Positions 16,276 through 35,133 of a stretch of DNA of 52,980 bases are shown one piece after another (within the stretch, counting starts at the first letter, position 1; every line of letters begins with the position of its first letter). A program made the translations under genes and the position numbers. Source of the DNA: a virus (Duplodnaviria > Caudoviricetes). The notes under the pieces are model-generated. The model was given only the letters and a program-made list of their open reading frames with translations. It did no database searches and had not been told where the DNA came from. The stretch is taken from the IMG/VR virus record IMGVR_UViG_3300030104_002689, positions 1-52,980 of that record, one strand, 5' to 3'.

Positions 16276-19200
16276 ATGTCAGACAGAATACCTAAAAATT
16301 ATATAGATCCAATTAGTGGCGTACCTCTTGGTCAAATTATGGATGATAGCGAAGGTTTCGCTCAAGTAATATTTGACCCTAATAGATTAAATGGAGATGT
16401 AAAAATATACGAAGGCATCCTTAATCAATTTGACAAAGATTATAAAGAGGTTATGAAGATGGATATACAGCGTACAGATAAACCTGTGCGTAAAACATAT
16501 AATTTAGATACAGATGATAGGTTTAATAATAATTATAATCATATAAAAAAAGTAACAGGACAAGTAGCACGAGAAAAAAACTTTGGTGTCAATACTCCTA
16601 AAAATCAAATGGAAAGATTTACATCAGAATGGGCAAGTGAAATAGGTGGTTTAATGAATTACCTAGAAGGTTATTTGCCAGATAAAAAAACAATAGAAGG
16701 TAAAGAATTACATAAAAGATATAACGCATTATTAGATGATGTTTTTGAAAATTTTTATGTACCAGCTATAGAAAAACAAGCTGAGATACTTGAAACAAAA
16801 CATTCTATTGATTCTAAAGGTGATTGGTGGAATAAAACTATAGGCTCTGCAACACAAACACTTGGTACTGGTTTACAGGTTAAATCAAGTGATATTGCAA
16901 AAGTTGCAACAGGAGCTATGAACATGCTTGACCCTACATCTCCAGTAAGGATGGGTAGTGGTAAATGGAGTCGTTATGCAGAAGACTTAGCTCAAGAAAT
17001 ATATGATGCAGGAGATAGTATAGCTGGTTGGGGTGGAAGAAAAATGGAAGGGGCTAAAGAACCTACTGGTGTTTATGCAGAATCTTTTGTAGATAGAATA
17101 GGTAAAGATGGTGTAAAGACTTTTTTAGATGCTAGTTACGTTGGATATAAAGTAGGAGAAAATTTAGGTAGTCAAATGTTTACTACAGCTCCAACATTAG
17201 CTTTACAAACTGCAGCACAATTAAATCCATATGTTAGAGGTATGGGTCTGTTTGCAAGAACAGGAATGGGGCTGTTAGCATCAACACCAGCACTTGCAGT
17301 TGGTAACGTTATGGAAACAGGCGATGCTTATCAATCAGCAAGATCACATTTATTAAATCTAAGACGACGAGCTAAAGGTGAGTTGTCATCTATTAGTTCT
17401 AAAGATGCTGATGCTATGCAAGAATTTAATGATATGTATTCTGTTTATTTAAATGAAGCTGTAACTAAAACAGTAGATAAGTTAGATGACGATGATATAC
17501 ATATGATTTCTAAAGAAATAGCAGATGCTTATGGTTATCTTAGTACAGGTATAGAAGCATTAGGCAATTTGCCACAAGCTGGTATATTGGCAAGAGGAGT
17601 AGCAAATAATCTTGGTATAGAATTAGGGAAGAAAGAAACTAAAAAAGAATTAACTAAATACGTTACTGATAGTTTATACAAACGTATTATGAAAAACAAA
17701 GTAAGCAATGTAGCAGCTAGTGGTGTAAGCGCATATGTCCAAGAAGGCTTAACTGAAGGATTGCAACAATTTACACAAGAAAATATTCTATCTAGAAGAT
17801 TGCCAATGAAAGATGTAGAGATAGACCAAGTGTGGAATGCTGCAATAGCTGGAGGATTTAGTGGAGCTTCTATAAGCACAGGAGTGCAATCAACATTTGC
17901 TCTTGGTGCTAAAATAGGAGAATATAGAGATAATAGAGCTTACGAACAACTTGATGAAGAATATCAATTTATAAAACAAGAAGCAAGAGATAAGACTAGT
18001 TATGACGATACTATAAGATTGTATGGAGCTATGGGTGTAGGATATAAAGACATTGGTGAATTTATATCTAGTAGATACAATGAGGATGAACAAAAAAGCA
18101 TTAGGTTAAAAGTTAAAGAACGTTATTTAAATATGCGTTCTGATATAGAAAACCTTAGAAACAATCCTCAAGGTTTAATAAGTCTTATAAAAAATAACAA
18201 AGAAGAAATTGGTAGTGTTGTTGATTTAAACGAACCTTTTTTACAGGCTTTAGGTTTGCAACCATCACAAATAGCTGATGTACTTGGTGTAAAAATATCT
18301 GACCTTAATCAACAAAAAGGTTTTAATTACGAAAATGTACAAAAAGAAAGACAGCAGTCTTTAGATGAAAGCTCTACAGATTTTACACAACCACCTCAAA
18401 GAGTAGATGGTTCTCAAGCAGATGACCCTACAGTTGGTGGACCCGACCCAACAATAATGGGAGATCCAACGGTAGATTTTGACCCAACAGTGTTTCAAGA
18501 AAAACAAGTTGAAAGATTGCAATCTGAAATAGAATCTTTAAAACGAGGCTCACAAAATACACATTTATCTCCAGAAGAACGAACAGTTCAAATAGAGGCT
18601 TTAGAAAATGAGATAGATAAATTGCAAATAGGAATCATTCCTACTAACGCTCTAACTAAATCTCCATCAGAAATGACTGTAGCTGAATTAAAAGACCTTG
18701 CTAAAGAACAAGGCAAAACTGGTTATTCAAGATTTAGTAAGAAACAACTTGTAGAGCTGGTAAGTGAAGAAACACAAGATGAGCCAGTAGTTAAACAAAG
18801 TACATCGCAAAACGCTATTAATACAGCTGCTAATTTTGCAGCTATGATGGGTTCAGAAGGCATGGGTGCATTTAATATATCAGATAGTTATGATGCGTTA
18901 GAGTTACAAGATTTAGAAGAATTAAATCCAGGTTTTGTTAAACAGCATGCTGAGAAAAAAGGTTTAATAACTGAAAATAAATCAACAAGTGAATTAATTG
19001 AAGAAATAGTTGAAAAGTTTCCTAAACAAATGAATATGGGAATGCCATTAACAGTTAGTCAAAAAGCTAAATGGAATAGAGAATTTAACAAAGCTTGGAT
19101 AACAGCATTAGATAATGTAGAAAATGTAGAAAGAATGGAAGGATTCTTTAGAATGTGGGTAGAAACTAAAGTAGGTCCATTGCTACCTGAACCATTACAA

Positions 19201-22200
19201 AAACATTTTTTAGAATGGGCATCTAATAAAAATCCAGCACAAATAGCTATGGGTGAAACATACTATAAAGTAGCTGATACTTTTATGGGTCTTATATCTT
19301 CTGATGATAAATTTAGTAAATTTGCTGAAAGCGAAATAAAAGAAGTAGAAAATGCTTTTGTTCGTGGTGAAGAATATTTAATGGAAGCTATATATCAAGC
19401 TGATATAGAAAATGCAGATATACAAATAGAAAACTTTACGCATTTAAATTCAAGATTTTTTGAAGCTATGAATGTTACGTTAGACAATGATATGATAAGA
19501 TCTATTGAAAAAGCAGCTGAAGACAACGATACGTTTGAAGGTTTTGTTACAGAAATAAGTAAAAAAGATTACAGTTTGTTAAGTCCAGATGGTGAAACAC
19601 CAAGTGATATTGTAAATAAAAACTCACCTTTAAAAAGAAGATTAAGACAATACTATGTATCTAACAGATCTGAAAATAATGTTATGATTAATATGGGTGA
19701 GCGTGAAAATGGACAAACTCCTAAACAAAAAGCTGTTTATTTAAATATAAATAACGGTTCTAAAGGCTTTACTTATTTTATTAAAGATGCAAGTAAAGGC
19801 AAAAAACGTTTACCAACAAACGCCAGAGCAACAATGGCAGATAAATTTGTTGAAACTCCAATAGTTTGGTTAAATGGTAGTGACTTAACTGCGTACAATC
19901 ATATGAATAAAAAGTTTGAATCAATCTATGGGTTTTTATCTAAAGATTTAATGGATGGTATGATACAAGATGTATTATCACAAGATGGTGTTCATTATGT
20001 TCCTTTATTTGTTCGTGGTGATTCAGATCGTATGGCAATGATACAAATTACTGACGCTGTAAGAAACATGAATCCAGAAGAATATTGGGCTAAAGAATTA
20101 AAAGATAATAAAAAATACGAAGACATTAAAGAAATATACATGAAACCATCTAAGGCTTTTGGTGATGAAATGCTTACTAAGTTAGCTAACATACAAAGAC
20201 ATATAGCATACAAAGAAATACTTGGGGAAGACTATCATACATTATCTGCACATAAGGTTATGCAACGTATAAAAATATTATATACACCAGCTTTAACATT
20301 TACTGGTGGTAAACCAAGTTTAGTAAAAATATTAAATACTAAAAAAGCTTTAGAGGGTAAACAAAATTTTATAACTGAAACAACTTATGAAGATGGAACT
20401 GTTACAACTAAAAATTTAGTAAAGTTAATGAATGGGGTTATGCAGTATACTGGCGATGGATTAACTTTAACATCGGAAAAAGTTTTTAGAGAAAAATATC
20501 CTAATGAAATAGGTGCAAATCCAGAAGCATTTAGAGCAAAGACTGTAAAAGCTTATAGAGGTGAATTAGGTACAGCTTTAATGAAACATCAAGAAATGAC
20601 ATTTGATTTGCCAGAAAATGCTGTAAAGTCAGATGTAATACTTGGTGGTAAAAAAGTTGCAGAAGTTAGACGAGATAAAGGTCAAGTAAATATATTTGTA
20701 GCTGATGATGATGGTGGTTTTACAAAATATGTAGACCATTTAAATACAGATGATGAATCTAAGGTGTTGTTAGGAGATCTATCTAATTACGACAAAGTAC
20801 ATGAATTGCCATCTGAAGCTACTGGTCATATTATGTTAACAGAAGGAGAAAAAGTTAGGGCACCTTTTCCAATGCAGTTAACAAACTACATGAATAATAA
20901 AGATTTTTTAAATGCTTTAAATAATTTAATGGAAGACTCAGACAATTCGCAATCTACTATATCTAAATTAAGAAGAATGATGCAATTAGCACAGAATCCA
21001 GATAGATTAAATGAGTTTTTATTAGAAACAAAATCTAAATATCCTGATAGTGTACCTAGAATGATTATGGAAATGGCTGCATTAGGAGCTGGTCATCATG
21101 AATCTGTGTTTGATATAGCAAGAACTATAGTAAAGAATAGATTATTTTCTGAAGCTATGGATAACAAACAAGATGGTGGTGTTTTAGATTTTAGAGCTAG
21201 TTATACAAGAGATGTAGAAAAAGGTAAAATTATATTACCATACGATTCTCAAAATATGCGTGATACAGTTGCTAGGCAATTAGCTGAACAAACAGATGGT
21301 GATATGTTAAAAATTTCTAATTTACCTGTAGAAGAAATTAATAAGTTGCTCAAGAAAAACCCAGTTAAGATAAACTTAGTTAGACATCCTATACCATCTA
21401 GGGCTGGTTATCGTGTATTACAAGTAGAATCTTTAGATACTGGTATTGGTGATAGTTTTATTATCAACGATGAAGATGTTAAAGAAGTTTTTGAAGGCGA
21501 CTTTGACCATGACACAGGACATATATTTACATTACCTTTTGCTATGCAAAGACAAATGGACAAACAACAAGATTTTGACAGTAAACCTACTAACCTTTCT
21601 CAATATGAAGGAATGGTTAAAGAAGCTAACTTAGGTTCATTAGATGAAACATTAGAATTAATGGTAGAAATGAGTGCTGGGCAAACAGCTATTGGTGAAA
21701 TAGCAAATATGCAACGAGCAATAGGTATAGGGCAACAAGTCTTTGGCAGTATGGAAATAAATGGGAAAACAGTTAAGATGCGTTCTCTTGACGCAGAAAT
21801 AACCGACCCGAAGGTAGGAACTATGTTGTTAGAAGATTTAATGAAACATTATGCACAAGCAGCATTTGATAATGTTAATCTTCGTTTATTAAAAGCCTGG
21901 GATTATTCTCAAGACAATATGATTAAAAAAATATTTTATAACTCAGATAATAGCCCAATAGATGATATACAAGTTCAAGTTTTAAAGGCAACATTTTTAA
22001 ATACAATTAGAACTACTCAAGCAATTAAAAATAATCAAGAGTTTGGTAGCAAACTTGATTTAGATAAAATGTTAGCAAGATCAATTGATTATAAAAACTT
22101 TACTGAAAACAGAGAAACGTATTTAAGAAATAAAGGAAAAGACAAAAATATTGAGTTAGAAGATGGAGAAAAAGTTCCAGCTTCAGATTATATTGGTAAG

Positions 22201-22989
22201 ATTAATATGAAAGATGGTCTGCATCCACATGAAAAATTAATTATCATGGTAACAGAAAGAGCAGATGCAATTCATAGGTTAGATTATAAAAATAAAAAAT
22301 TACTTTATGATGAAGATGGTAATCCTATTACTGGTATAGACGTAGACGAGTTATTTAGATATAGTCCAGCTAAAATAAAAATGGCTCATGATTTAGCTAC
22401 AAGAGAAGTAACTACAGATACAGAAAGATTGTCTATGGTAGAAGATGCTTATGGTGATATTATGGATAATTTAAATCAGGACCAGTTAAGAACTGTTTTA
22501 AAAGATATAGAAACTGGAGAACAATGGGGAGCTACTATGAGGCAAAATCTTATGGAGGTTTATGCTAAAATGGAAGAAAGCAAATCAGATGAAGCTCCAG
22601 CAAAAATAGCAAACAGTCTTACATGGGATTATAATAAAGATTTTGTAGACTTTACACAAAAGTGGCTTAATGGTTTTACTTATGATAATGGAACAGAACA
22701 AGCTGGATATAATCAATTAACTCCTGTAGCACAAGTATCTGCTACCTATCAATTTTTAGAAGGCATTATAGATGCTAGAGATGGACAAGGTAAAAATACA
22801 GTAAGAAAATTACCACCTATTTCTAGAAATACTGGAGAAACATTATTAAATCCAGATATTATGAGTAAATATTTTGATAAATATAATGATGTAATTACTG
22901 ATGTTTTTGAAGATGGTAAAGAATATGGTATGAGACAACCAAACAAAACATTTAATAGATTATTCAAGGAGTTTTATAACTGTGAGTAG
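16276..22989 (+). CDS. Giant internal virion protein containing a two-barrel (DPBB) RNA polymerase; probable virion RNAP
   Basis: D1394-G, K1422, K1437, R1703-H-P, D1742-F-D-H-D1746, I1806-G-E-I-A-N and A-A-F-D1865 occur in the order seen in single-chain two-barrel polymerases. Ejection-type N-terminus; Rho-N-like segment at aa ~798-831. Confidence 0.8.
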   Translation: MSDRIPKNYIDPISGVPLGQIMDDSEGFAQVIFDPNRLNGDVKIYEGILNQFDKDYKEVMKMDIQRTDKPVRKTYNLDTDDRFNNNYNHIKKVTGQVAREKNFGVNTPKNQMERFTSEWASEIGGLMNYLEGYLPDKKTIEGKELHKRYNALLDDVFENFYVPAIEKQAEILETKHSIDSKGDWWNKTIGSATQTLGTGLQVKSSDIAKVATGAMNMLDPTSPVRMGSGKWSRYAEDLAQEIYDAGDSIAGWGGRKMEGAKEPTGVYAESFVDRIGKDGVKTFLDASYVGYKVGENLGSQMFTTAPTLALQTAAQLNPYVRGMGLFARTGMGLLASTPALAVGNVMETGDAYQSARSHLLNLRRRAKGELSSISSKDADAMQEFNDMYSVYLNEAVTKTVDKLDDDDIHMISKEIADAYGYLSTGIEALGNLPQAGILARGVANNLGIELGKKETKKELTKYVTDSLYKRIMKNKVSNVAASGVSAYVQEGLTEGLQQFTQENILSRRLPMKDVEIDQVWNAAIAGGFSGASISTGVQSTFALGAKIGEYRDNRAYEQLDEEYQFIKQEARDKTSYDDTIRLYGAMGVGYKDIGEFISSRYNEDEQKSIRLKVKERYLNMRSDIENLRNNPQGLISLIKNNKEEIGSVVDLNEPFLQALGLQPSQIADVLGVKISDLNQQKGFNYENVQKERQQSLDESSTDFTQPPQRVDGSQADDPTVGGPDPTIMGDPTVDFDPTVFQEKQVERLQSEIESLKRGSQNTHLSPEERTVQIEALENEIDKLQIGIIPTNALTKSPSEMTVAELKDLAKEQGKTGYSRFSKKQLVELVSEETQDEPVVKQSTSQNAINTAANFAAMMGSEGMGAFNISDSYDALELQDLEELNPGFVKQHAEKKGLITENKSTSELIEEIVEKFPKQMNMGMPLTVSQKAKWNREFNKAWITALDNVENVERMEGFFRMWVETKVGPLLPEPLQKHFLEWASNKNPAQIAMGETYYKVADTFMGLISSDDKFSKFAESEIKEVENAFVRGEEYLMEAIYQADIENADIQIENFTHLNSRFFEAMNVTLDNDMIRSIEKAAEDNDTFEGFVTEISKKDYSLLSPDGETPSDIVNKNSPLKRRLRQYYVSNRSENNVMINMGERENGQTPKQKAVYLNINNGSKGFTYFIKDASKGKKRLPTNARATMADKFVETPIVWLNGSDLTAYNHMNKKFESIYGFLSKDLMDGMIQDVLSQDGVHYVPLFVRGDSDRMAMIQITDAVRNMNPEEYWAKELKDNKKYEDIKEIYMKPSKAFGDEMLTKLANIQRHIAYKEILGEDYHTLSAHKVMQRIKILYTPALTFTGGKPSLVKILNTKKALEGKQNFITETTYEDGTVTTKNLVKLMNGVMQYTGDGLTLTSEKVFREKYPNEIGANPEAFRAKTVKAYRGELGTALMKHQEMTFDLPENAVKSDVILGGKKVAEVRRDKGQVNIFVADDDGGFTKYVDHLNTDDESKVLLGDLSNYDKVHELPSEATGHIMLTEGEKVRAPFPMQLTNYMNNKDFLNALNNLMEDSDNSQSTISKLRRMMQLAQNPDRLNEFLLETKSKYPDSVPRMIMEMAALGAGHHESVFDIARTIVKNRLFSEAMDNKQDGGVLDFRASYTRDVEKGKIILPYDSQNMRDTVARQLAEQTDGDMLKISNLPVEEINKLLKKNPVKINLVRHPIPSRAGYRVLQVESLDTGIGDSFIINDEDVKEVFEGDFDHDTGHIFTLPFAMQRQMDKQQDFDSKPTNLSQYEGMVKEANLGSLDETLELMVEMSAGQTAIGEIANMQRAIGIGQQVFGSMEINGKTVKMRSLDAEITDPKVGTMLLEDLMKHYAQAAFDNVNLRLLKAWDYSQDNMIKKIFYNSDNSPIDDIQVQVLKATFLNTIRTTQAIKNNQEFGSKLDLDKMLARSIDYKNFTENRETYLRNKGKDKNIELEDGEKVPASDYIGKINMKDGLHPHEKLIIMVTERADAIHRLDYKNKKLLYDEDGNPITGIDVDELFRYSPAKIKMAHDLATREVTTDTERLSMVEDAYGDIMDNLNQDQLRTVLKDIETGEQWGATMRQNLMEVYAKMEESKSDEAPAKIANSLTWDYNKDFVDFTQKWLNGFTYDNGTEQAGYNQLTPVAQVSATYQFLEGIIDARDGQGKNTVRKLPPISRNTGETLLNPDIMSKYFDKYNDVITDVFEDGKEYGMRQPNKTFNRLFKEFYNCE

Positions 22990-25900
22990 ATGTACAACGT
23001 TAAATCAATCATTAGAAGACCAAAGATTACAAGAGTGGGCTGATAGGCATGCACGAAGAAATCAAATTGAGGGTATGTTGGGTGAGCAAAAAGCTAGTAA
23101 AACTGCTCGTTTAGTAAAATGGTTGTCAGAAAAACAACAAGATGTTCTTACTGAAAAAGAATTAAACAGTGCAATTAAAACATATGTAAAACCACAAGAT
23201 AGAGAGCAAGCTAAATTAGCTCTTGAAATAATTTCTAGAATGGAAGCTAATCCGTTGATAGAAGATCAAATGTATTTTTCTATTCTTGAAAATTCTAGGT
23301 ATTTATCTGAGAACGACATAGACCAAGTAGAATATACTGAAAATAAAAATGGTGATAGAGTTCCAGTATTAGATACATTACCAGTTACTATTCTTAGAAA
23401 CATACAAGGCGATTTAAATGGAGCATTAAATGGTGGTAAAATGTTTCAAAATCGTAGAGGTGTATTAGGTAATATGCAATATGAATGGGGTTCTCCAAGA
23501 CGCACCATGATGAAAGATCCATCTGGAACAATGTTTAAAGTAAACGAAGTTACTGAACAGTTTACTTATAATGCTCAAAGTTTTGCTAATCAATATTTAT
23601 ATGCTCCTAAAAGTAGAACTGGTACAAAAGTTCGTGATTATGGATTTACTACTATAGCTGGAGATGTTGATTTTTTTGCTGATTATACAATGAATATACC
23701 AGCTGAAGATACCTGGAAGTTGTTTTCAGAAGTTATGGAAGGAAGAACTATTTACGACCAAAGAACTGGTTTTATTATGAGGCATCAAGAAGAAGTAAAA
23801 ATGCCTAATGGTCAATTTGAATGGAGAAATCTTAAACCATTTACATACAAAGAAAATGGTAAAGAAAAAATATTAAAAGGTTTTACACCAGCTCAATTAC
23901 AAACATTTCAGCAAATAGAATCAGAAGCTAGGGAAATGTTTAAATTAATTGGTAAAGACATGGAGAATGAAATTTCTTATATATCGCAATCTGAAGGTGC
24001 ATTAAAAAGAAGAGCAAAAGAAGCTGGATTAGAAGATTGGCTAGAATCTATGATAGGTGGAATGATTGATGATGAATTATTAATTGCAGGATTAAATGCT
24101 GGAGAAATGAAATCTGGCAAGTATTACCCTAGAATGTTTTTGCGTGGTAAAATTACTTTAAATCTACAAGAAGCTTTAATTAGTCAAGAAGACGCATTAA
24201 AGAAAAAGAAACAAACTTTAAATAATCCTGACTCTGGTATGGATACACCAACAAAAAAACAATTAGCTGATGAAATATTTGACCATGAATTTTCTATATT
24301 AGCTATACAAAGACAGTTAGATATGGCTTTTGATCAAAATCAATCTTACAGCCCAGCTACTGGAGATTATAATAGAACACAAAGTTGGTATAAAAATTTT
24401 AAAAATGTTACTAGAGTAATGAATCCTAATGATATGCGTTATGATGAAAATGTTATGGAGGATTATGTTAACAATGTTTCTAATGCAGTAATTAGAAATG
24501 ATGCTATAATAAAAGTAGGCAATGCTTTATTAGATGCAAAGATAAATGGTTTTAATGACAATGTTATTGGCGCATCTAAAGATATATTTGATGCTACATT
24601 TTTTCCACAAAATGCTGCTAGTCAAATGTTTGGAAAAGATTTGAGAGCCTCTACAATATCTAAACAAGTTGGTCAAATAGGTATTCCATTAAGCGAAGAA
24701 AGAATAATAAACGGTTCTAATTCTTTATCTAATATGACTACTGCTAATGTTTTGTTTGGAATATTTCAAGGAGTTGTTAATTATTCTGCATTGTTATTAA
24801 AATTAGATAGAGTTGGTTTATCTGATTTTGTTAAAGCAAGTCATGAAATGACAGATCCTAAACGTAGAGATGTTTGGAGAGATATTGTAGCTAAGTCTGG
24901 TATTAATACTTTTTCAGAATTTGTAACTACATATTTTTCACATTCTATGAGACCAGATGAAGTTGCTGCTTACAAAACAGAAATAAATCAATTTAAAGCT
25001 ATGGTAGAAAAAGCAGAAAAAACTGGTAATATTGCTGAAATAAAAAAATATAGAAATTATATTAAAAAACAAAAAAGTAAAATTGCTCCATTTAAAAGAG
25101 CTGTAGAACAAGCAGCTAATTATGTTATTACTAGAAATCTTTATTATAAAAAGAATGCACCTGTTTTAGGTAAAGTTTTAGAGACTGGTTCTTTATACGC
25201 TAAAGTAATGCCATCTATTAATGACACTGAACAAATGTTACGTTCTACTAGTTTTATTATAGGTGCAATGAATGAAGTAAAAACAGGTAGAGCTAAAGAC
25301 ATAAACTCTAAAGAAGCTATTGATGCTGGTATACAGATGGCTATGAATCTTGATTTTGGTTTATCGCATCAGCATGTAGGTGCAGCTTTAAGAGGTCCAA
25401 TTGCTGGACAACAATTAAATAAAATGAAAATATGGCATGTACAAAAAGCTGGTTTTGATATAAGAACATTTACAAAGGCAGTACGTTCTATGACTCCAGA
25501 TTTAGAATTGTCAAATGGTAAATTTAATACAAAAGCTATGAACGCATTTAGATTAGGTACTAGTGGTATAAAGTTATTAGCTACTAATCCATTAACTAAA
25601 GGTGTAGCTGCTGGTTTAATAGCAGGTGGACTTGGAGCTTCTATGCCATTAGCTTATTTAGCTACAGCAGGAGTTACTCTAGGTTCTAATAAATCAAAGA
25701 AAATGCGTAAAGTAAATAATTATGTAGCACATTTTAATAGTGCATTTATTAGACAAGCTATGGTTACTGGTTTAATGGATTTAGTTATATTTGGGGCACC
25801 AGCTACATTACTTGCTAACTCATGGTTAAAAAGAAATTTCTTTGCATCTGGTATGTCGAAAGGAATACAAGGTATGGGGTCTAGTGCTATATCATTAGGT

Positions 25901-26194
25901 ATTGCATTAACACAAATTGCGGCAGGATTATTAAAGGGAGAGGAAGAAAAGGAAATTGAAAAACTTATACCAAGAGCATTGTTTCATACTCCAATTGGTA
26001 TAGGTGCTGGAGCTTTGTACGCTGCTGGTAAATGGGCACAGGATGTTTATAGGCATGATAGAAAATATGAATTAGAAAATTTGGATCATTGGGAAGACAA
26101 TCGTAAAAGAGCGTTATCTCCTTATATTCCATTTGGTAAGTTCGGGTATGGTGTTGCTGCTGAACCTGTGATTCGTCGTCTAAGCGGTACTTAA
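22982..26194 (+). CDS. Large internal virion (ejection) protein
   Basis: 1070 aa, helical, YYPR motif, Gly/Ala-rich hydrophobic C-terminal segments. GTG start after AGGAG; last gene of the late operon. Confidence 0.65.
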   Translation: MSRCTTLNQSLEDQRLQEWADRHARRNQIEGMLGEQKASKTARLVKWLSEKQQDVLTEKELNSAIKTYVKPQDREQAKLALEIISRMEANPLIEDQMYFSILENSRYLSENDIDQVEYTENKNGDRVPVLDTLPVTILRNIQGDLNGALNGGKMFQNRRGVLGNMQYEWGSPRRTMMKDPSGTMFKVNEVTEQFTYNAQSFANQYLYAPKSRTGTKVRDYGFTTIAGDVDFFADYTMNIPAEDTWKLFSEVMEGRTIYDQRTGFIMRHQEEVKMPNGQFEWRNLKPFTYKENGKEKILKGFTPAQLQTFQQIESEAREMFKLIGKDMENEISYISQSEGALKRRAKEAGLEDWLESMIGGMIDDELLIAGLNAGEMKSGKYYPRMFLRGKITLNLQEALISQEDALKKKKQTLNNPDSGMDTPTKKQLADEIFDHEFSILAIQRQLDMAFDQNQSYSPATGDYNRTQSWYKNFKNVTRVMNPNDMRYDENVMEDYVNNVSNAVIRNDAIIKVGNALLDAKINGFNDNVIGASKDIFDATFFPQNAASQMFGKDLRASTISKQVGQIGIPLSEERIINGSNSLSNMTTANVLFGIFQGVVNYSALLLKLDRVGLSDFVKASHEMTDPKRRDVWRDIVAKSGINTFSEFVTTYFSHSMRPDEVAAYKTEINQFKAMVEKAEKTGNIAEIKKYRNYIKKQKSKIAPFKRAVEQAANYVITRNLYYKKNAPVLGKVLETGSLYAKVMPSINDTEQMLRSTSFIIGAMNEVKTGRAKDINSKEAIDAGIQMAMNLDFGLSHQHVGAALRGPIAGQQLNKMKIWHVQKAGFDIRTFTKAVRSMTPDLELSNGKFNTKAMNAFRLGTSGIKLLATNPLTKGVAAGLIAGGLGASMPLAYLATAGVTLGSNKSKKMRKVNNYVAHFNSAFIRQAMVTGLMDLVIFGAPATLLANSWLKRNFFASGMSKGIQGMGSSAISLGIALTQIAAGLLKGEEEKEIEKLIPRALFHTPIGIGAGALYAAGKWAQDVYRHDRKYELENLDHWEDNRKRALSPYIPFGKFGYGVAAEPVIRRLSGT

Positions 26195-26304: not shown

Positions 26305-26625
26305 CTAATCAAGAGATTTTTTATTCTTTTTTACAAACCTTTCTAAAAACTCATCATAACGCATTACAATAAGTGGTTCTTCTCTATCTGCTTTGATTAC
26401 TTGGGCATTTACATGCTTACTAGGTATCATCCATTGCCCCATAGCTTTTCTAACTTTAGCTTGAACTTTGAATGATTTACCTAGTAGTACGTCTACTTCT
26501 TCGTGCATGCCGAGAGCTGCGCCATTAGACGCATATGCTCTCTTGCATGCTATTCCCATGGCTTGGGTCATTAATACTATCAATCTTTCGAATCTGTTAC
26601 CTTTTGCTTTACTTGGACTTGCCAT
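26305..26625 (-). CDS. Holliday junction resolvase (Hjc-like PD-(D/E)XK)
   Basis: SKAKGNRFER...VDV...VQAK pattern, 106 aa. Confidence 0.8.
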   Translation of the reverse strand: MASPSKAKGNRFERLIVLMTQAMGIACKRAYASNGAALGMHEEVDVLLGKSFKVQAKVRKAMGQWMIPSKHVNAQVIKADREEPLIVMRYDEFLERFVKKNKKSLD

Positions 26626-26627
26626 TT

Positions 26628-26843
26628 CTAACTCTTTTCTTCGTCAATTGTTTTCATATAGAACGCATCTTGCAATTCTGCTTCTAGCTTATCTTGTTTT
26701 TTTGTTTCTGTAAACATAACAATGCCATCTATAATACCTTTTTTATAAGCACGTGCTTCTATAGTAGTGTCAAAAGCAGCCATAGGAGCATCTCCTTGGT
26801 CGTTTTTTAGAATCTCTTTCCAATATACCATGTATTTACTCAT
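26628..26843 (-). CDS. Hypothetical protein
   Basis: Coupled to the helicase stop. Confidence 0.65.
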   Translation of the reverse strand: MSKYMVYWKEILKNDQGDAPMAAFDTTIEARAYKKGIIDGIVMFTETKKQDKLEAELQDAFYMKTIDEEKS

Positions 26844-28222
26844 TTAATATTGCCAAACCTTTCTATTCGTTTAATGAACTCTTTAGCTTCATCATCATCT
26901 AGCTCATCTACTGAGTTTACAGTTTCATCTACATTTTCTATAAACGAAACTTTGTTACCATCAAAACCAAACACTAGTTTTTTGTTTTCACCATAACGAA
27001 CTTTAGCTGCTACAATTTGTGTTTTGTTCTTACCTAGTGTACTGTTTTCATAATTTACTTTGTAATCATAATACACAAAAAGAACATTTTCTGCAACTTG
27101 TTCTATAGAGCCTGATTCTGCTAAATCACTCATCTTTGGTACTGGGTCAATACGTTTTTCTATATCACGATTAAGCTGACTAACAAGTATAGGTACAATT
27201 TGATATTGTTTAGCAAGCCATTTGTATTCATTCATAACTGTTTCTAGTTCAAATCGTCTTTGATCGTAACCATCCATTTTAATAAGCTGTATATAGTCAT
27301 CAATAATTACATCTGGTTTGTGTCTTGCTATGTGAGTTACAACAGAATCTAAATCTCTTGCAGTGTCTATCATAATTAACTGGTCTTGATATGTTTTCAT
27401 AACATTCATAACTCGCATTAATTCATTATAGCCACCTTTGTCCAAGCCATTGGCACGAATATCACTATAGCTTAGATTACCACTTTCTAGTACAACTAAC
27501 TTTTTCATCATTTCTACATTAGTCATCTCACGATTAATCATAAGAACTTTGTGTCCTTGTTTAACAAAGTTTCTAACTAAATTAACAGAGAATGTAGTTT
27601 TGCCATGACCTGGTCTACCTGCTATAACAGTAACCTCGCCTTTAGTCATACCACCAGCTAGATTGTCTAGTTTATTGTAACCAAATCTAATATAGTTACC
27701 ACCTGTTTTAATTGAGTCTAAAGTTTCATCTATAATTGATTCAATAGATGGATCTTTAATAGGACTTAAAGCTGTTAACGAATCAGTTGTTTTTTTTACT
27801 TTGCGTATTAATTTTTCAAATTCTTCGTTATTCTCGTAAGCACCTTTTTGTATTTTAATACTAGATTTAATTAACTCACGCTTTAAGAACCTCTCCAATA
27901 TTACCTGTGCATGATGCTCAACGTTAGCTGTGGAAGGGATAGAACCAGACAAACCAGTTATATAGTATGCTGATACAGCTTGTTTTTCTTTGCTAGTAAG
28001 TTTAGACATTATAGCTATAGGGTCAATTGGAGATTTGTTCTTACTCAATTCTACTATTTTTTGCCATATTATTTTAGTTTTTTCATGATAAAATACATCT
28101 GGCTTTGGAATGTAGTCTTTAACTACTGTGTATAGTTCTGGGTTAATCATTATGCAACCAAGAACTGATTCTTCTGCTTCTTTACTATGAGGAAAAGCTT
28201 GGTATTCTTCTACACCTCGCAT
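26840..28222 (-). CDS. dnaB: Replicative DNA helicase, DnaB family
   Basis: PHS.EAE.SVLG N-terminus, Walker A AGRPGHGKT, IIDDYIQL, SQLNR, SDLAESGSIEQ, KVRYG. Confidence 0.96.
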   Translation of the reverse strand: MRGVEEYQAFPHSKEAEESVLGCIMINPELYTVVKDYIPKPDVFYHEKTKIIWQKIVELSKNKSPIDPIAIMSKLTSKEKQAVSAYYITGLSGSIPSTANVEHHAQVILERFLKRELIKSSIKIQKGAYENNEEFEKLIRKVKKTTDSLTALSPIKDPSIESIIDETLDSIKTGGNYIRFGYNKLDNLAGGMTKGEVTVIAGRPGHGKTTFSVNLVRNFVKQGHKVLMINREMTNVEMMKKLVVLESGNLSYSDIRANGLDKGGYNELMRVMNVMKTYQDQLIMIDTARDLDSVVTHIARHKPDVIIDDYIQLIKMDGYDQRRFELETVMNEYKWLAKQYQIVPILVSQLNRDIEKRIDPVPKMSDLAESGSIEQVAENVLFVYYDYKVNYENSTLGKNKTQIVAAKVRYGENKKLVFGFDGNKVSFIENVDETVNSVDELDDDEAKEFIKRIERFGNIK

Positions 28223-28473
28223 ACATCACCTACACAATTTGAGTCATTACTCATTACCGACGATTCCATATCTCTTTTTTCTTTAATTTTATTTTTTATT
28301 TCTAGTATTGCTTTACGCAAACTTTCTGTATTTGGTCGGTCTTGTGTAGGGATTGCATCAATTACTTTTAATGCTGTCATTAATGTATTTACTTCTTCCA
28401 TGTTCTGTATCAATAATAAATAATATCCGTTCTCCATAATTTCTTTCTTTTTCTGTTCTGTTAAAACTTCCAT
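28210..28473 (-). CDS. Hypothetical protein
   Basis: AAGGA RBS; ends in CVGDVCEV. Confidence 0.65.
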   Translation of the reverse strand: MEVLTEQKKKEIMENGYYLLLIQNMEEVNTLMTALKVIDAIPTQDRPNTESLRKAILEIKNKIKEKRDMESSVMSNDSNCVGDVCEV

Positions 28474-28491
28474 AATTTTTCCTTTTCTTAT

Positions 28492-28643
28492 TACAGACAG
28501 AAAACCGACTACAAAATACCAGCCTTCTTAAACAGTTCTTTATAAATAGAATCCTAGTTATTAATTAAACGTACTTAAGAAAGCACAGTTACTAAACGCC
28601 AATCCAGTTAATTATGCACTTTGAAAGTCGGTTATTGTCTGTA
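28492..28643 (-). ncRNA. Putative structured RNA element
   Basis: Outer stem 28492-28510/28626-28643 and nested stem 28522-28531/28575-28584; the inner mismatch becomes G-U on the - strand. Confidence 0.5.
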
Positions 28644-28671
28644 TTTTCTATTGTAAAATAGAGTTTTGAAT

Positions 28672-29640
28672 TTAGTTAAGTACCATTTCTTTTGCTACAT
28701 CAAAAGCAAGTTTTTTAGTTTTATAACCCCATCCAAACCCTATAGATTTCATTCTATTGTTATAGTTTTTGCAATGATCTACATACTCTGTTACAGCATT
28801 GTAAGCATCATACATAGTTCTACCATTATTACCTTTGCCATAAACATAGTTATGCATTAATCTTTCAAACTGTGGTTTTGAAAAGTTTGGTGATTTTCTG
28901 CCTGTTAATGGATTAATACTTAAAGCATTTCTATGTTTAATTGCAGGAAATATAGTTTCAAAGTATTCTATAACTTGAGATTTATCAAGTTTAGTAATAT
29001 AGAAATCACGCATTATAGTAATTGCTGTGTCAATATCACCTTCATTAGCTCTAAGAACCTCTGTAAAATCATCCAATCTTTCTCTAGCATTTGTAGTATG
29101 TTTAATGGTTAGTTTTGTACCTTTAGAGTCTAATGAAAAGTCTAAAGTATTTTGACAAACTACACGAACAACTGTAGGTCGTATAACAATACCAGAACTA
29201 CCATCATGACTATTATACAACAACATATATGATTGTAATTCATCTGTATTTATACTATCTACATTAGGTCTTTTAGCTAATATCCATATTTTTTCTCCAT
29301 CGCCTAAAGCACCTGCAGTTTCATATGTATAACCTTTTTCTAACAACACTTCATCAAAAGGTTGAAATGCTTCTAGATTTTGTAATACTTCATATTTTTC
29401 AGAAACATTACCTAATGGTAAAAATTTACCATTTTTATCGTATCTATATGTACAATGATAACCAGTTGGTCTTGTTTCTCCATTAATTACATATGTTTCT
29501 GATTTATGTACTTGCCAATCTAATCCTGCTTGGACCAGTGCTTCTTCTGTTGATGGTGGTATGTTAAGTTCTGTTCCCAATCCGTGCCATGGTGTTTCTC
29601 CAACATAGAACATTGCTTCATTATTCATTATATTATGCAT
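28672..29640 (-). CDS. DUF932 / TIGR03299-family phage-plasmid protein
   Basis: MFYVGETPWHGLG, AGLDW.V, YETAGAL, NSHDGS, RVVCQNTL, AYNAVTEYVDH. Confidence 0.9.
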   Translation of the reverse strand: MHNIMNNEAMFYVGETPWHGLGTELNIPPSTEEALVQAGLDWQVHKSETYVINGETRPTGYHCTYRYDKNGKFLPLGNVSEKYEVLQNLEAFQPFDEVLLEKGYTYETAGALGDGEKIWILAKRPNVDSINTDELQSYMLLYNSHDGSSGIVIRPTVVRVVCQNTLDFSLDSKGTKLTIKHTTNARERLDDFTEVLRANEGDIDTAITIMRDFYITKLDKSQVIEYFETIFPAIKHRNALSINPLTGRKSPNFSKPQFERLMHNYVYGKGNNGRTMYDAYNAVTEYVDHCKNYNNRMKSIGFGWGYKTKKLAFDVAKEMVLN

Positions 29641-29842
29641 TTACTTCTCCTTTATTATAATTTGGATAATCGTATTTAGAGCAAGAGTTACATTGTTCTT
29701 CATCTATTTGATAAGTGTAATCTTTGCCATTTTTTTTATAGATCTTATATCTATATTCTATTACTCTCCTGCCATCGCATCTTGGACAGACATTAGCGTA
29801 CACTTCAGCAAGTAGTTCTTGCTCAGTCTTCTGGCGGGTCAT
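29633..29842 (-). CDS. Small zinc-finger protein
   Basis: CPRCDG ... CNSC. Confidence 0.65.
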   Translation of the reverse strand: MTRQKTEQELLAEVYANVCPRCDGRRVIEYRYKIYKKNGKDYTYQIDEEQCNSCSKYDYPNYNKGEVNA

Positions 29843-30215
29843 AGCCTCTTATTCTCCTTTCTGCTTTTAATTGCGTTTCTTTGTGTTGAACTTTGTTACG
29901 TATCATAGCTGCAAGATATGATAATGGTTTAGCTTTTAAATGCATTTCATCATCTATATATTGTCTTATGCCAAGCATAACATCTCTTAAATCAGCTGTG
30001 CCACCAACTGTGTACAAGAACTTGCTCTTTTCGATACCTGTGAGTTTGCCCTCGTACACATGCTTATCAATTATCTTGAAAAACTCGCTGATGACTTCCT
30101 GAAAAAGAGGACTAAGTTCATCCCAATACATTTTGGCTTCTGTAGTAATTACTTCAGGGTCAGAATGGTAATTACATCTTGGGCATCTAAAGTATCCTCT
30201 TTTTCTTGTTTTCAT
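29823..30215 (-). CDS. Hypothetical, possible replication initiator/loader
   Basis: CPRC knuckle plus a DnaD-like PLSYLAAMIRN helix; located in the replication block. Confidence 0.45.
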   Translation of the reverse strand: MKTRKRGYFRCPRCNYHSDPEVITTEAKMYWDELSPLFQEVISEFFKIIDKHVYEGKLTGIEKSKFLYTVGGTADLRDVMLGIRQYIDDEMHLKAKPLSYLAAMIRNKVQHKETQLKAERRIRGYDPPED

Positions 30216-31906
30216 TTTTTATAATGTCCTATTGAGTAAGGTTGTCCAGGAACTGCATACATTATCGAATGTTTTAATGTAGCAGGTATTTTATTGTATT
30301 TTTTAGTCATAAGATGTTCAACTAATTTCTTTTTACTGTTAAGATTTATACAATCTCCGTCTAATCTTTGTAAAGCAGCAACACCGTAACAATTAAAGAA
30401 CTTTTGTCTAAACTCCTTATTTTTAACAAACTCATGTGTAACATATTGATACAAGCTCAATGGAGACTCAATTGATTTAAGCCATTCATCTATTTCTGCA
30501 TATGAAAATGTGTTGTAATGATGGTTAAACCAGTATGGTGTCATTCTTTGTACAAATGTAGCATCTGTAAATTTCATAGTATGAACAGGATGAGATTTAT
30601 CTTGTATAATTGTTTCACCTTTTTTGTAATCATACGTTGATGGTACTGCTGTACTGAGTTCTCTGTGTTGTATTAAGAATTTAAATGTTGGATCTAAATC
30701 CTTTTTACTATTACCCATACGTTCTTTATATGTTTCTACTACTGAATCTACTATCGGTGCAACAAGTTTATTTATTTTATTGTAAGCCAATCTGTATATA
30801 TCATCTTTACTATCATCTTTTTTATTTTCAGTATCATTTTCTTTACTTACTTGTTTCTTTGTTTCATAATAGATAATAGGTTTTAAAGGATTACCATTCC
30901 ATTTAGTTACAACAATATCACTGTATTTAACTTCTGTTTGTTCTACTAGCCATGATTTTAATGATTTAGAATCTTTTATTTTCCAAACTGATAAATCCCA
31001 ATCATGTATATATGTTTTACCTTGTCTATCAGTGTATTCATTATTTTCTTGAACAGGTAATTCTTTAAATAATTCCTGACCTGCCAAAGTATGTTTTATC
31101 ATAACTTCTGAAAGAAACTGTTCATTGTCATGTATTTCTTTATCTATATACTCATCAAACAATACATTTTGATAATTTGGTGGTTTGACTCCTATTGCTT
31201 TTTCTTCTTTACGCCATACTTTTAAAGGCACAAATTCTAATAGCTTAGATGCAGTACTACCAGACAATCTGCTGTAAGCTTCTCTGCAAAAATCATAGAT
31301 ATTGTCATCATTAATTTCTTTAGCTCCATTTTCTTCAAGAAATTCATCATAGAAACTAATTTGTTTATCAAGTGGCATTTTACCAAACTCAACAATATCT
31401 TCTATGTAATCATCTAAACTTCCATCGTCTTCAGTTTCAGTAGCAAGTTTACTTAATTCACGAAAGATCTTAGGTTCTATGTTAGAAAGGAATGTAGCTA
31501 CTTGAATAAACGCTTTGTTTTTACCAAATAAGGCTTGTAATTGTTTTTGTGTTTTAACAACACCTTTAGCAGCCATTTGATTTATGCCAATAGCACAATC
31601 CCATATAGTTAGTTGTACACGATTCATATTAGTCATTAACTGAGCTAATGTAGAATCCATACCATATTCATCAAGTTGTATTTGATATGCTGGTATTAAG
31701 TCATGTTTTAGTTCTTTAACAATTTGCAAACGTTGATGACCATCTAATACAACTGGTTTCCCATTAATTAATTGATAAGTAATAGGTTGCAGTATACCAT
31801 ATTCATTAATGTTTCTTTTGAGTTCTTTATACTCACTTGTTTTCTTTTTGTTGTTACTACGTGCGTTACTAAAGGACTGAATGTCCTTGATTTTAAGGGT
31901 GTTCAT
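30212..31906 (-). CDS. ParB/Srx N-terminal domain protein with HTH and long C-terminal extension
   Basis: ELKRNINEYGILQPI...VLDGHQRL...NMNRVQL, then TQKQLQALFGKNKAFI (HTH-like). AGGAG RBS. Confidence 0.85.
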   Translation of the reverse strand: MNTLKIKDIQSFSNARSNNKKKTSEYKELKRNINEYGILQPITYQLINGKPVVLDGHQRLQIVKELKHDLIPAYQIQLDEYGMDSTLAQLMTNMNRVQLTIWDCAIGINQMAAKGVVKTQKQLQALFGKNKAFIQVATFLSNIEPKIFRELSKLATETEDDGSLDDYIEDIVEFGKMPLDKQISFYDEFLEENGAKEINDDNIYDFCREAYSRLSGSTASKLLEFVPLKVWRKEEKAIGVKPPNYQNVLFDEYIDKEIHDNEQFLSEVMIKHTLAGQELFKELPVQENNEYTDRQGKTYIHDWDLSVWKIKDSKSLKSWLVEQTEVKYSDIVVTKWNGNPLKPIIYYETKKQVSKENDTENKKDDSKDDIYRLAYNKINKLVAPIVDSVVETYKERMGNSKKDLDPTFKFLIQHRELSTAVPSTYDYKKGETIIQDKSHPVHTMKFTDATFVQRMTPYWFNHHYNTFSYAEIDEWLKSIESPLSLYQYVTHEFVKNKEFRQKFFNCYGVAALQRLDGDCINLNSKKKLVEHLMTKKYNKIPATLKHSIMYAVPGQPYSIGHYKK

Positions 31907-31935
31907 GTTTACTCCTATTGAGGTGGTTAATTAAA

Positions 31936-32220
31936 TAGGGCTAAACTGTTATTATGTATTCATAAACCTTTAACTACTAAATAACTAGTTGTGTTTAGCC
32001 CTAAAATTAATGAGAGTAAATAGTCGCATCCTGTTAGAGGTTACCAAGATACTCCCCAGTATAGACTCGATAACTTAAGTGATATTTACCTATTTACTCT
32101 CAATTATTGATTAAGATTTTGTGATTGGAACAACCGCCCCCAAATGCACAAGAGATGGAGGCGGCGTTGGCGTTGTTTCGCTGTCCAGTTATCAGGAAAG
32201 GGAAATTAAAACTGATAACT
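31936..32220 (-). ncRNA. Tandem set of four stem-closed structured RNA elements
   Basis: Inverted repeats 31936-46/31993-32003 (11 bp perfect), 32011-23/32090-102 (13 bp perfect), 32134-42/32156-64 (G-U on - strand) and 32187-95/32212-20 (9 bp perfect). Confidence 0.55.
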
Positions 32221-32846
32221 TAAAATGGTAAGTCCTCGTCGTCTACGACTGAGCCACTATCGGCAACTAATCCATGATACTGGTTAGCATCATGCCATGG
32301 GTGAACTTCTGTGACTCGGTTTACCATAGTATTTGGGTCATTATATTTAGGTTCTTCTTTAACGTGAACTATTAAAGGCAAACCTTGCCAGTTTTCGAAG
32401 CCTTTATCTAATTTCTTTATATCATTTAGATCAGCAGGGTATTCTGTTACTCCATCTTTTTCCTTCAGTGTTTTATTATACCCAGAATGATTAATTAAAT
32501 GCAAGAATTTTCCATTTACATCTCTAAAATACTCATATTTTTCTTTATCAGTCTTACCTTGTAGTTCTGTAGTTAGAAATACATCTAAATTCAGCCATTT
32601 TCTGCCAAATTCTGGATGTTTTTCGCCATCTACTTCAAGTGTAAACCATAACTTATCGTAAGTTAGACCTTCTTTCTTACCACTTTTGTATTTTAGACCA
32701 CTTTCTGACTTGAAAAACTCAGCATCTACTTCGTTTAATTTAACAATATGTACGCAGTAATCCCCTGGAGGTACTGTTTTTATTTTTTTCTTGTCAGATT
32801 TACTACTTCCTGTTGGAATGTCGTTTGTTGTACCTTTTATTGGCAT
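32220..32846 (-). CDS. Single-stranded DNA-binding protein (DUF669-like)
   Basis: VPPGDY.V.I N-terminus, acidic DDEDLPF tail, adjacent to ERF. Confidence 0.75.
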   Translation of the reverse strand: MPIKGTTNDIPTGSSKSDKKKIKTVPPGDYCVHIVKLNEVDAEFFKSESGLKYKSGKKEGLTYDKLWFTLEVDGEKHPEFGRKWLNLDVFLTTELQGKTDKEKYEYFRDVNGKFLHLINHSGYNKTLKEKDGVTEYPADLNDIKKLDKGFENWQGLPLIVHVKEEPKYNDPNTMVNRVTEVHPWHDANQYHGLVADSGSVVDDEDLPF

Positions 32847-33469
32847 TATTTACTCCTCTTTTGTATAATATTTTCTATTTCTTTTACTACTTTATCGTAT
32901 GTTGATGGATCTTGTTTGATACTAGTTAGTTTACGTTTCATTAAATCAGTATAATCTGATGCATTAATACCACCATTATCATAAAGCTCTTGTATTTTTT
33001 CTTGTAATGCTTGTAACGTCTTAACTTGTTCAGTTTTTAGTTTAGGTGGTGCCAATGCACCATCATCATCATCGCTACTTGCAAGATTTAAATGTGATAG
33101 TAAAGCATAGCGTCTTAAATATGTTATTGCTTGACCTGCACTTTGATAAGAGCTAACTCTTGTATTGGTATCAATAGGAACAGACACATTAGATATAATG
33201 TATTGACCAGATTTATGCATCCATGTGGTTTTTACACCTATCATTCCATCATTACCTATTGGTGCTTGCATAAAAGTTATACCATGTTTTTTCATAATGG
33301 GTTTGATTTTAGGCAAAAGATAATCCATTGATGTGTACTTGAACTGACCTTGCGAATCTTTCTTAATTTTACTGAACTCATCAGTCAGTTTCATTTGAGC
33401 TTCAATAAGTTTAGTTATATCAGCTGACATTACATCGTATGATGTATCTTTATGGGCTATTTCATTCAT
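32846..33469 (-). CDS. erf: ERF-family single-strand annealing protein
   Basis: KY.S.D...HKSGQ...Q.AG.AITYLRRYAL...DDDDG. Confidence 0.92.
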   Translation of the reverse strand: MNEIAHKDTSYDVMSADITKLIEAQMKLTDEFSKIKKDSQGQFKYTSMDYLLPKIKPIMKKHGITFMQAPIGNDGMIGVKTTWMHKSGQYIISNVSVPIDTNTRVSSYQSAGQAITYLRRYALLSHLNLASSDDDDGALAPPKLKTEQVKTLQALQEKIQELYDNGGINASDYTDLMKRKLTSIKQDPSTYDKVVKEIENIIQKRSK

Positions 33470-33470
33470 A

Positions 33471-34232: not shown

Positions 34233-34256
34233 AATTTACCCTTTATTTATAGTAGT

Positions 34257-34924: not shown

Positions 34925-34926
34925 AA

Positions 34927-35133
34927 TTAACCTATAAACAGAGGGTTTCCGTCTTCATCAACGTCAGAAAGGTCAGATATGTCAGTTATTTTATTATTTG
35001 CGTAAGAATTACAAATTTTTTCTAATTCTAAAGCTATTGCAGTGATTTTCTTTAATTTTTTAGCGTATTTAAGATTTTTTTGATAAAAGTGTAAGGATAA
35101 TGCTGCAAAAATTAAAATTAATATGTATGTCAT
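34927..35133 (-). CDS. Small membrane-anchored protein
   Basis: N-terminal TM helix; GGAG RBS. Confidence 0.65.
   Translation of the reverse strand: MTYILILIFAALSLHFYQKNLKYAKKLKKITAIALELEKICNSYANNKITDISDLSDVDEDGNPLFIG

Follow-up and report, generated by a model that had tools for sequence, protein, structure and literature searches.

The window analysed here is a stretch of 52,980 nucleotides (nt) that makes up the whole of IMG/VR record IMGVR_UViG_3300030104_002689 (52,980 bp; Duplodnaviria, Caudoviricetes; 33.5% G+C; estimated 99% complete), and it is a near-complete 53-kb tailed-phage genome. It encodes a giant protein of 2,237 amino acids (aa), whose C-terminal half, aa 1150-2237, is very likely a two-barrel polymerase with an intact active site that has been kept under selection. 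On our analysis, the giant protein as a whole is probably a virion-packaged RNA polymerase (RNAP) that would be injected to serve as an early transcriptase. Enzymes of this kind, giant virion proteins with a two-barrel RNAP, are already known. The polymerase family, the ~50-kb phage lineage, the C-terminal placement of the polymerase, a conserved partner of ~1,070 aa and a DxDHD-TGH form of the metal-binding loop appear to be new.

The giant protein (P0001) is read from an open reading frame (ORF) with an ATG start, 3 nt past the stop codon of the preceding gene. An earlier note on this DNA, made from the letters alone, had proposed a hidden two-barrel RNAP in this ORF from the motifs YTGDG, K1422, K1437, LVRHP, EGDFDHD (aa 1740-1746), AIGEIAN (aa 1805-1811) and AQAAFDN, and all of these were present in the ORF translation, residue and nucleotide numbers included. 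DFDHD is the sole DxDxD string in the giant protein, and three further DxDxD strings occur among the other ORFs of the window. With Asp at 7.6% of its residues, the giant protein is expected to hold ~1.0 DxDxD by chance; in shuffles of the protein (n = 5,000) at least one DxDxD was present in 60%, and an RxP 30-50 aa upstream of a DxDxD in 2.6%. Because about one such string is expected by chance, the motifs of one sequence are by themselves weak evidence and only suggestive; they are raised above chance because the same residues are conserved in homologues, and the predicted fold agrees.

Relatives of aa 1150-2237 were collected with phmmer, run exhaustively over 1.84 billion cluster representatives (clusters at 50% identity). 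At E ≤ 1e-3 there were 116 metagenomic relatives, of which 93 also passed E ≤ 1e-10 and 50 passed E ≤ 1e-30; many were proteins of 2,000-3,600 aa with the matching region at their C-terminus. A second search found 27 relatives, all metagenomic; none of the 27 carried an RNA polymerase family annotation, and Pfam domains were on record for P0138 only (2OG-Fe(II) oxygenase and cpYpsA). Conservation was counted in the phmmer alignment, in which 54 to 82 sequences cover the residues given here. The residues picked out in the earlier note were the most conserved positions of the protein. The three loop aspartates were invariant (D1742 71/71, D1744 71/71, D1746 72/72), as were R1703 (67/67), P1705 (68/68), G1711 (68/68), K1437 (54/54), Q1861 (82/82) and D1865 (81/81), and D1394 (53/54), G1395 (53/54) and K1422 (52/54) were near-invariant (≥96%). 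The family consensus reads RSPxPxxxG ... EGDxDGD ... AIGEIAN ... LQAAVDNxK. The earlier note had let its proposal stand or fall in part with the conservation of RxP and DxDxD; these, like DG and the lysines, were invariant or nearly so in up to 72 sequences.

The second and fourth residues of the catalytic loop behave differently from the aspartates. Loop residue 2 is free (n = 71: G 20, H 15, Y 9, N 9, F 8, M 4, Q 3, W 2, S 1), and loop residue 4 is Gly in 47 of 71 sequences, His in 19, and Y, N, Q, A or I in one each. All 19 His-loop sequences have a second His four residues on, mostly as DxDHD-TGH, and within this subgroup the three Asp, RxP, the lysines and QAxxD are all invariant. In a FastTree tree of 51 core sequences, read without its support values, the His-loop forms split into two groups with DGDGD and DFDGD branches between them. 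The His of DFDHD, which the earlier note had described as a variant that it did not recognise and that may make the site auto-inhibited, is indeed at loop residue 4, and it marks a subgroup of the family as a replacement of the otherwise canonical Gly.

An AlphaFold2 model of aa 1150-2237, built with a 51-sequence alignment, reached a predicted local distance difference test score (pLDDT) of 90.0 and a predicted template modelling score (pTM) of 0.86. The top Foldseek matches in the PDB were gp66 of phage phi14:2 (6vr4_A, E 1.4e-9), QDE-1 (E 2.3e-9) and RDR2 (E 2.2e-7), followed by P74 gp62 (E 1.2e-4), P32 gp64 (E ~1e-4) and then bacterial beta' subunits. VIA-align, run on Foldseek's list, returned RDR2, gp66, QDE-1, gp62 and the AR9 and PhiKZ non-virion RNAPs, together with Pol I, II, III, IV and V, the bacterial, archaeal, plastid, vaccinia and African swine fever virus enzymes, and P23-45 gp96. 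No PolD-type DNA polymerase chain was among the 50 matches listed. Among predicted viral structures (BFVD), the closest were three nameless UniProt entries (E 1.4e-56 to 8.7e-31, template modelling scores 0.70-0.79, 14-22% identity). Further matches were more nameless entries, an 'RNA dependent RNA polymerase' of an uncultured podovirus, many crAss-like proteins, phi14:2 gp66 itself (E 3.2e-6) and a P23-45 protein. UniProt already holds nameless relatives. In the ESM Atlas the nearest named cluster was an RNA-dependent RNA polymerase (RdRP) cluster (0.83), which we take as a lead only.

The conserved motifs were mapped on this model, numbered here from its first residue. DFDHD lies within the region that aligns to the beta' barrels (480-622), in a loop between helix 583-589 and strand 598-602, and LVRHP is on strand 549-554. 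YTGDG lies in a hairpin turn between strands 239-242 and 247-250, K1422 and K1437 are on the adjacent strands 271-280 and 283-292, and AQAAFDN is in helix 703-715. The region taken as the first barrel is spanned by the global alignments to P74 gp62, QDE-1, RDR2 and gp66. Directly after the second barrel, a helix of 34 residues carries AIGEIAN and the conserved residues G1802 (75/78), I1806 (67/77) and G1817; no trigger loop was identified after the second barrel in the model. K1422 and K1437 are candidate counterparts of the catalytic lysines in beta or QDE-1, and the DG/Lys, AIGEIAN and QAAFDN motifs may correspond to those of RdRPs. The earlier note had staked its proposal on two double-psi beta-barrels (DPBB) in the predicted structure as well, and the prediction returned a two-barrel RNA polymerase fold with gp66, QDE-1 and RDR2 at the top of the Foldseek list. 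In the predicted structure two DPBB domains would form one active-site cleft within a single chain, a feature by which membership of the two-barrel superfamily is judged. These results support, at the level of the model, a fold of aa 1150-2237 like that of the single-chain RNA polymerases of the gp66 and RNA interference (RNAi) type.

The genome places the giant gene last but one in the late structural operon. On the + strand the operon starts with a weak small-terminase candidate (phrog_51, E 1.9e-4), the large terminase (TerL), the portal, a 300-aa gene, the major capsid protein (MCP) and tail-fibre-like genes, where the record ends. It goes on with more tail-fibre genes, an endolysin, a metallophosphoesterase, an 886-aa gene, a 728-aa fibre-like gene and genes of 143, 364 and 427 aa, and it closes with the 2,237-aa gene and a 1,070-aa gene, after which the strand switches to replication genes. 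Four moderately hydrophobic segments rich in Gly and Ala lie in the C-terminal half of the 1,070-aa protein (aa 588-606, 875-893, 921-939 and 966-984); the 364-aa protein has one hydrophobic segment and the giant protein none. The 1,070-aa protein is a candidate membrane-inserting ejection partner in a position like that of phi14:2 gp65. The same four-gene module, followed by the strand switch, was found in related loci, with products of 532, 449, 2,273 and 1,078 aa (L002), 513, 465, 2,292 and 1,093 aa (L004), 363, 533, 3,444 and 1,113 aa (L012), and 392, 540, 2,996 and 1,127 aa (L044). Of 44 related loci searched by tblastn, 43 had the polymerase module, 25 had a same-strand homologue of the 1,070-aa protein downstream of it, 15 had DUF932 on the opposite strand, and 5 had DnaB. 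The related viral contigs are up to 45-59 kb long.

This arrangement closely parallels that of phi14:2 gp66 (PDB 6VR4), which is packaged in the virion and transcribes the early genes according to the available part of its description (bioRxiv 10.1101/2020.03.07.982082). Both proteins are single chains of similar size (2,180 aa in gp66 vs 2,237 aa here) with two DPBB barrels. As far as that partial source goes, both also have RxP...DxDxD with a loop residue 4 other than Gly (Ile in gp66, His here). In each phage the gene stands at the end of the late structural operon and is followed by another very large gene, and the phi14:2 operon runs in parallel order through TerL, portal, MCP, tail genes, endolysin, phosphoesterase, structural genes, g067, g066 and g065. 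In the phi14:2 record, g067, g066 (the RNAP) and g065 ('RNA polymerase associated protein') were all seen in virions by proteomics. The two systems differ in several respects. No sequence similarity between gp66 and the giant protein was detectable by BLASTP or hhalign; DFDID is at 1361 of 2,180 in gp66, whereas the polymerase here is C-terminal with its loop at 1742 of 2,237; crAss-like phages have genomes of ~90-100 kb vs 53 kb here; and no cleft-blocking domain was identified in the giant protein.

Other known virion RNAPs differ in architecture or in fold. The P23-45 virion RNAP, which was found by seeking DxDxD in virion proteins (PMC10770324, available part), is gp96, with an N-terminal polymerase fused to the tape measure protein of a long-tailed phage, whereas the polymerase here is C-terminal and no tape measure was recognised in the window phage. 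Neither gp96 nor the non-virion RNAPs of the gp64 and P74 gp62 type have sequence similarity to the giant protein. The N4 virion RNAP (gp50) is alike in logic, being a giant, late-gene-encoded protein of a helical region plus a polymerase module that is delivered with the DNA, as the protein here would be, but it is a T7-like right-hand enzyme of unrelated fold. Injection of the N4 enzyme is the task of its helical N-terminal region of 998 residues, according to the part of PMC5512222 available.

We therefore favour an injected early transcriptase because of the position at the operon end, the fusion to a long helical region, the pairing with a partner that has hydrophobic segments, and the precedents of gp66, gp96 and N4; in our analysis the support for packaging, ejection and early-block transcription comes from gene position and conserved synteny. 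We infer RNA rather than DNA synthesis, a DNA template, a location in the virion, ejection and a role in early-gene expression. The module would belong to the clade of single-chain two-barrel polymerases that includes crAss-like gp66, the phage RNAPs of P23-45 type and the eukaryotic RNAi enzymes QDE-1 and RDR2. In the proposed mechanism, two double-psi beta-barrels would face each other, the first carrying D1394-G, K1422 and K1437, and the second the metal-binding loop D1742-x-D1744-x-D1746 with R1703-x-P before it, and the bridge helix would be the long helix of aa 1789-1822 past the second barrel. Packaging of the protein into the capsid, and its later movement through the tail, would fall to the helical aa 1-1150. 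If gp66 is a guide, the giant protein would be made late in infection, packaged, and ejected along with the DNA and with its neighbours of 364, 427 and 1,070 aa; the ejected enzyme would then transcribe the early block on the opposite strand without need of the host RNA polymerase (coordinates in Table 1).

Several results weigh against this reading. The polymerase part had no match in Pfam, PHROGs or NCBIfam, phmmer and family-profile hmmsearch against all PDB sequences found no polymerase, and tblastn of the giant protein against 50,697 deposited phage records gave 0 matches. The comparison with gp66 was not significant by BLASTP (best E 2.1), by hhalign of the family profile (E 0.45) or by hhalign against a profile of eight crAss-like polymerase segments (E 0.039, probability 1.3%). 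The first barrel was covered by global alignments only and had no match as an isolated domain, and loop residue 4 of the giant protein is His, not Gly. The 99%-complete genome has no recognised primase or DNA polymerase. No early-block promoter emerged either: direct repeats share no motif, and inspection of the intergenic regions showed nothing obvious. The null result of the promoter search is uninformative, because gp66 early transcripts likewise have no common motif (bioRxiv 10.1101/2020.03.07.982082, available part); a sigma-70 scan gave 69 sites vs 68.2 expected. In favour of the reading, the sole (non-significant) alignment reported in both hhalign runs pairs R1703-x-P...DFDHD with R-I-P...DFDID (1361-1365) of gp66, which is the correct register; the link to gp66 is structural, not sequence-based. 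In curated-library scans of the giant protein, a match to an L20 fusion was rejected as an artefact.

Searches with other proteins did not link the phage to the crAss-like group. In the same collection of deposited phages, tblastn with gp66 found 141 records, mostly crAss-like, Bacteroides and Flavobacterium phages. BLASTP of the 1,070-aa protein, MCP and portal against their phi14:2 counterparts showed no significant similarity. TerL was at best ~25% identical to the terminases of unrelated podoviruses such as ICP2, Lentibacter ICBM2 and CRP-5, and the 15 matches listed for it were all non-crAss phages; the portal had two weak matches among the deposited phages and MCP one. The window phage is not recognisably a member of Crassvirales.

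Among other explanations, the main one makes the module a primase-like or replication-priming polymerase, which would lay RNA primers on incoming or replicating phage DNA and make no mRNA. We regard it as unlikely, although the absence of a recognisable primase or DNA polymerase beside a DnaB-like helicase, Erf and an exonuclease in a 99%-complete genome speaks for it. Priming has also been proposed for RdRP-like enzymes of phages and selfish elements (PMC3417536, available part), and among injected proteins, transferred primases form a recognised class (PMC5512222, available part). The closest phage structural relatives, namely gp66, P23-45-type gp62/gp64 and gp96, are however transcriptases, as far as the partial sources describe them. 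The gene lies, moreover, in the late structural operon and outside the replication block. DnaB-type helicases can recruit the host primase. There is a slim chance of a non-virion enzyme: the giant protein would be produced in the infected cell as an RNA polymerase for middle or late genes, and would be neither packaged nor injected. RNAPs of the P74 gp62/gp64 type are small (~590 residues), whereas the module here is fused behind 1,150 helical residues and its gene lies where the structural operon ends, next to genes for large proteins that have hydrophobic segments, as in phi14:2; the P23-45 enzyme of that type is encoded by a pre-early gene (PMC10770324, available part).

Another alternative is a QDE-1/RDR-like RNA-dependent polymerase that acts on RNA or makes non-coding RNA, for example as an injected counter-defence enzyme. 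We consider this very improbable. The giant gene differs from QDE-1 and RDR2 (PF05183) in standing in a phage structural operon, and the Pfam RdRP model had no match in the giant protein (E ≤ 1), in 17 long relatives (E ≤ 0.001) or in 12 further relatives (E ≤ 1). The loop differs as well, with a highly variable residue 2 in the phage family and His as residue 4 in the subgroup of the giant protein. That same His could point to a catalytically dead structural or ejection protein with a leftover polymerase fold, its loop inactivated by the Gly-to-His change, given that residue 4 was Gly in all RNAPs studied before gp66 (bioRxiv 10.1101/2020.03.07.982082, available part). This is the least probable of the readings: the three Asp, RxP, the lysines and QAxxD are invariant in the His subgroup and in the family, as would be expected only under selection for catalysis, and gp66 is active with Ile at this position, according to the same partial source. 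An injected early transcriptase remains the reading that we prefer, and no second RNA polymerase was recognised in the 99%-complete genome.

The N-terminal half is presumably the packaging and ejection part of the protein. It is kept in close relatives, and its AlphaFold2 model was of low confidence (pLDDT 64.2, pTM 0.42); Foldseek of this low-confidence model against the PDB found nothing at E ≤ 1e-3, which is no sign of a new fold. In the middle of the helical half there is a DNA-binding motif resembling Rho_N, SAP and helix-extended-helix (HeH) domains, and just before it an Asp/Pro-rich low-complexity linker (aa ~700-735) that is disordered in the model. Pfam Rho_N matched aa 799-827 below threshold (E 0.0011, 19.3 bits vs a cut-off of 24.9), and PHROG matches covered aa 794-833.

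Distant relatives carry more domains. The giant protein itself consists of the polymerase, the sub-threshold HeH-like motif and the helical half. In 17 distant long relatives that were scanned, the domains upstream of the polymerase included a superfamily 1 (SF1) helicase (AAA_30, AAA_19, UvrD_C_2) in 4, an AlkB-like 2OG-Fe(II) oxygenase in 3, PIF1 in 3, cpYpsA in 2, and SAP, SprT-like and GNAT domains in 1 each. Most full-length members of the DxDGD type have an HExxH ~480-1,900 residues upstream of the catalytic loop, and none was found at that distance in the close relatives of the giant protein. Across P0019-P0061 and P0138, the polymerase is fused to SF1 helicase, AlkB-like oxygenase, cpYpsA, GNAT, SAP and SprT/HExxH domains. 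These fusions resemble the injected polyvalent-type proteins (Iyer, Burroughs & Aravind 2017) and link two-barrel RNAPs to them. In such polyvalent proteins, N4-type RNAP and primase modules are fused to zincin peptidases, and the terms 'double-psi', 'DPBB' and 'RdRP' occur nowhere in the part of the paper available (PMC5512222).

Table 1 Features of the window that bear on the giant protein and its surroundings (nucleotide positions of the window).
Feature	Position	Strand	Remarks
Two upstream genes, 364 and 427 aa	13886..16273	+	No family match; similar-sized genes precede the giant gene in relatives
Giant ORF, 2,237 aa	16276..22989	+	N-terminal half helical; C-terminal half predicted two-barrel RNA polymerase
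N-terminal half, aa 1-1150, presumed packaging/ejection part	16276..19725	+	Predicted almost wholly alpha-helical
Rho_N / SAP / HeH-like helix-extended-helix motif, aa 798-833	18667..18774	+	Below the Pfam cut-off
Predicted RNA polymerase module, aa 1150-2237	19723..22986	+	116 homologues; AlphaFold2 pLDDT 90.0; fold matches
Beta-rich region, taken as first (beta-like) barrel with insertions, aa ~1348-1530 (model 199-381)	20317..20865	+	Approximate boundaries
YTGDG motif, aa 1391-1395	20446..20460	+	D1394 (nt 20455) and G1395 each near-invariant (53/54)
K1422 to K1437 stretch	20539..20586	+	Lysines on two adjacent strands (52/54 and 54/54)
Second (beta'-like) double-psi beta-barrel, aa 1629-1771 (model 480-622)	21160..21588	+	Aligns to beta' barrels
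RxP (R1703-H-P1705) of LVRHP, aa 1701-1705	21382..21390 (R1703-P1705)	+	R 67/67, P 68/68; then G1711 68/68
Presumed catalytic loop D1742-F-D1744-H-D1746	21499..21513	+	Asp invariant (71/71, 71/71, 72/72)
34-residue helix, aa 1789-1822, bridge-helix candidate	21640..21741	+	Model helix 640-673, directly after the second barrel; carries AIGEIAN
AQAAFDN motif, aa 1860-1866	21853..21873	+	Q1861 82/82, D1865 81/81
Downstream 1,070-aa protein	22982..26194	+	No family match; GTG start; 8-nt overlap with the giant ORF
Replication/recombination block, presumed early block and polymerase template	26305..37107	-	DnaB, DUF932, ParB-like, Erf, Cas4-like exonuclease, small ORFs

For the replication and recombination block on the opposite strand, we infer both the early timing and the role as template. 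Scans of the window for tRNA genes and Rfam families found nothing. Within the block, a gene-free stretch of 313 nt (31907-32219) contains AT-rich repeats and has no Rfam match. Read in the sense of the minus strand, it opens with the inverted repeat GTTATCAG...CTGATAAC, followed by the G+C-rich pair GCCGCCTCC...GGGGGCGG. This stretch could serve as an origin or as a regulatory region, or could encode a non-coding RNA; intergenic regions with high transcription are known from phi14:2.

The endolysin encoded in the window points to a bacterial host. The only relative in the prokaryote genome collection, L004 (CAYPWN010000015.1, 23.8 kb), has the same module and belongs to a metagenome-assembled genome labelled Candidatus Poseidoniales (an archaeon); it is probably a phage contig binned by mistake. 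The two ends of the record (1-647 vs 52352-52980) are ~90% identical over ~630 nt with an 18-nt indel, and each falls within a tail-fibre-like ORF that is open-ended (3..1124 and 51919..52980). Either the genome was assembled as a circle whose ends overlap imperfectly, with strain variation, or these are two paralogous fibre genes.

A literature search on strings of the His loop (DxDHD type) found no relevant paper, and a search on virion and two-barrel RNAPs turned up only work on crAss, P23-45, jumbo-phage, YonO, QDE-1 and N4 enzymes. In the available part of Chaban et al. 2024 (PMC10770324), 23 previously described families of two-barrel RNAPs are mentioned, and the family of the giant protein could be among them. 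It is conceivable, though in our view rather doubtful as a whole, that an uncultured lineage of ~45-59-kb phages with no sequence relation to Crassvirales has its own ancient family of injected single-chain two-barrel RNAPs, always paired with a membrane-active partner of ~1,070-1,130 aa, and that the His branch (DxDHD-TGH) is an undescribed type of active site, perhaps with a His-assisted or differently regulated metal site.

Virion-delivered two-barrel RNAPs have so far been documented in crAss-like phages (gp66) and in P23-45-like Thermus phages, as a tape-measure fusion. The present family would add a third, with 116 clusters at 50% identity, which sequence methods could not link to the other two. 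For annotation, it assigns a probable function to a large set of hypothetical giant proteins from marine and other metagenomes. The polymerase module (~1,090 aa) is compact and confidently modelled and offers itself for biochemistry; its universal metal-binding loop is a natural Gly-to-His variant, for which the relatives with the canonical Gly can serve as controls. Through its fusions with helicase, AlkB-like and zincin domains, the family connects two-barrel RNAPs with injected conflict proteins of several domains, and it provides new data bearing on whether eukaryotic RNAi polymerases derive from phage enzymes. Since this third, sequence-distinct family occurs in ~50-kb phages, bringing one's own RdRP-like transcriptase may be far more widespread than the known families suggest, and the finding suggests that injection of such an enzyme to start infection occurs well beyond the crAss-like phages.

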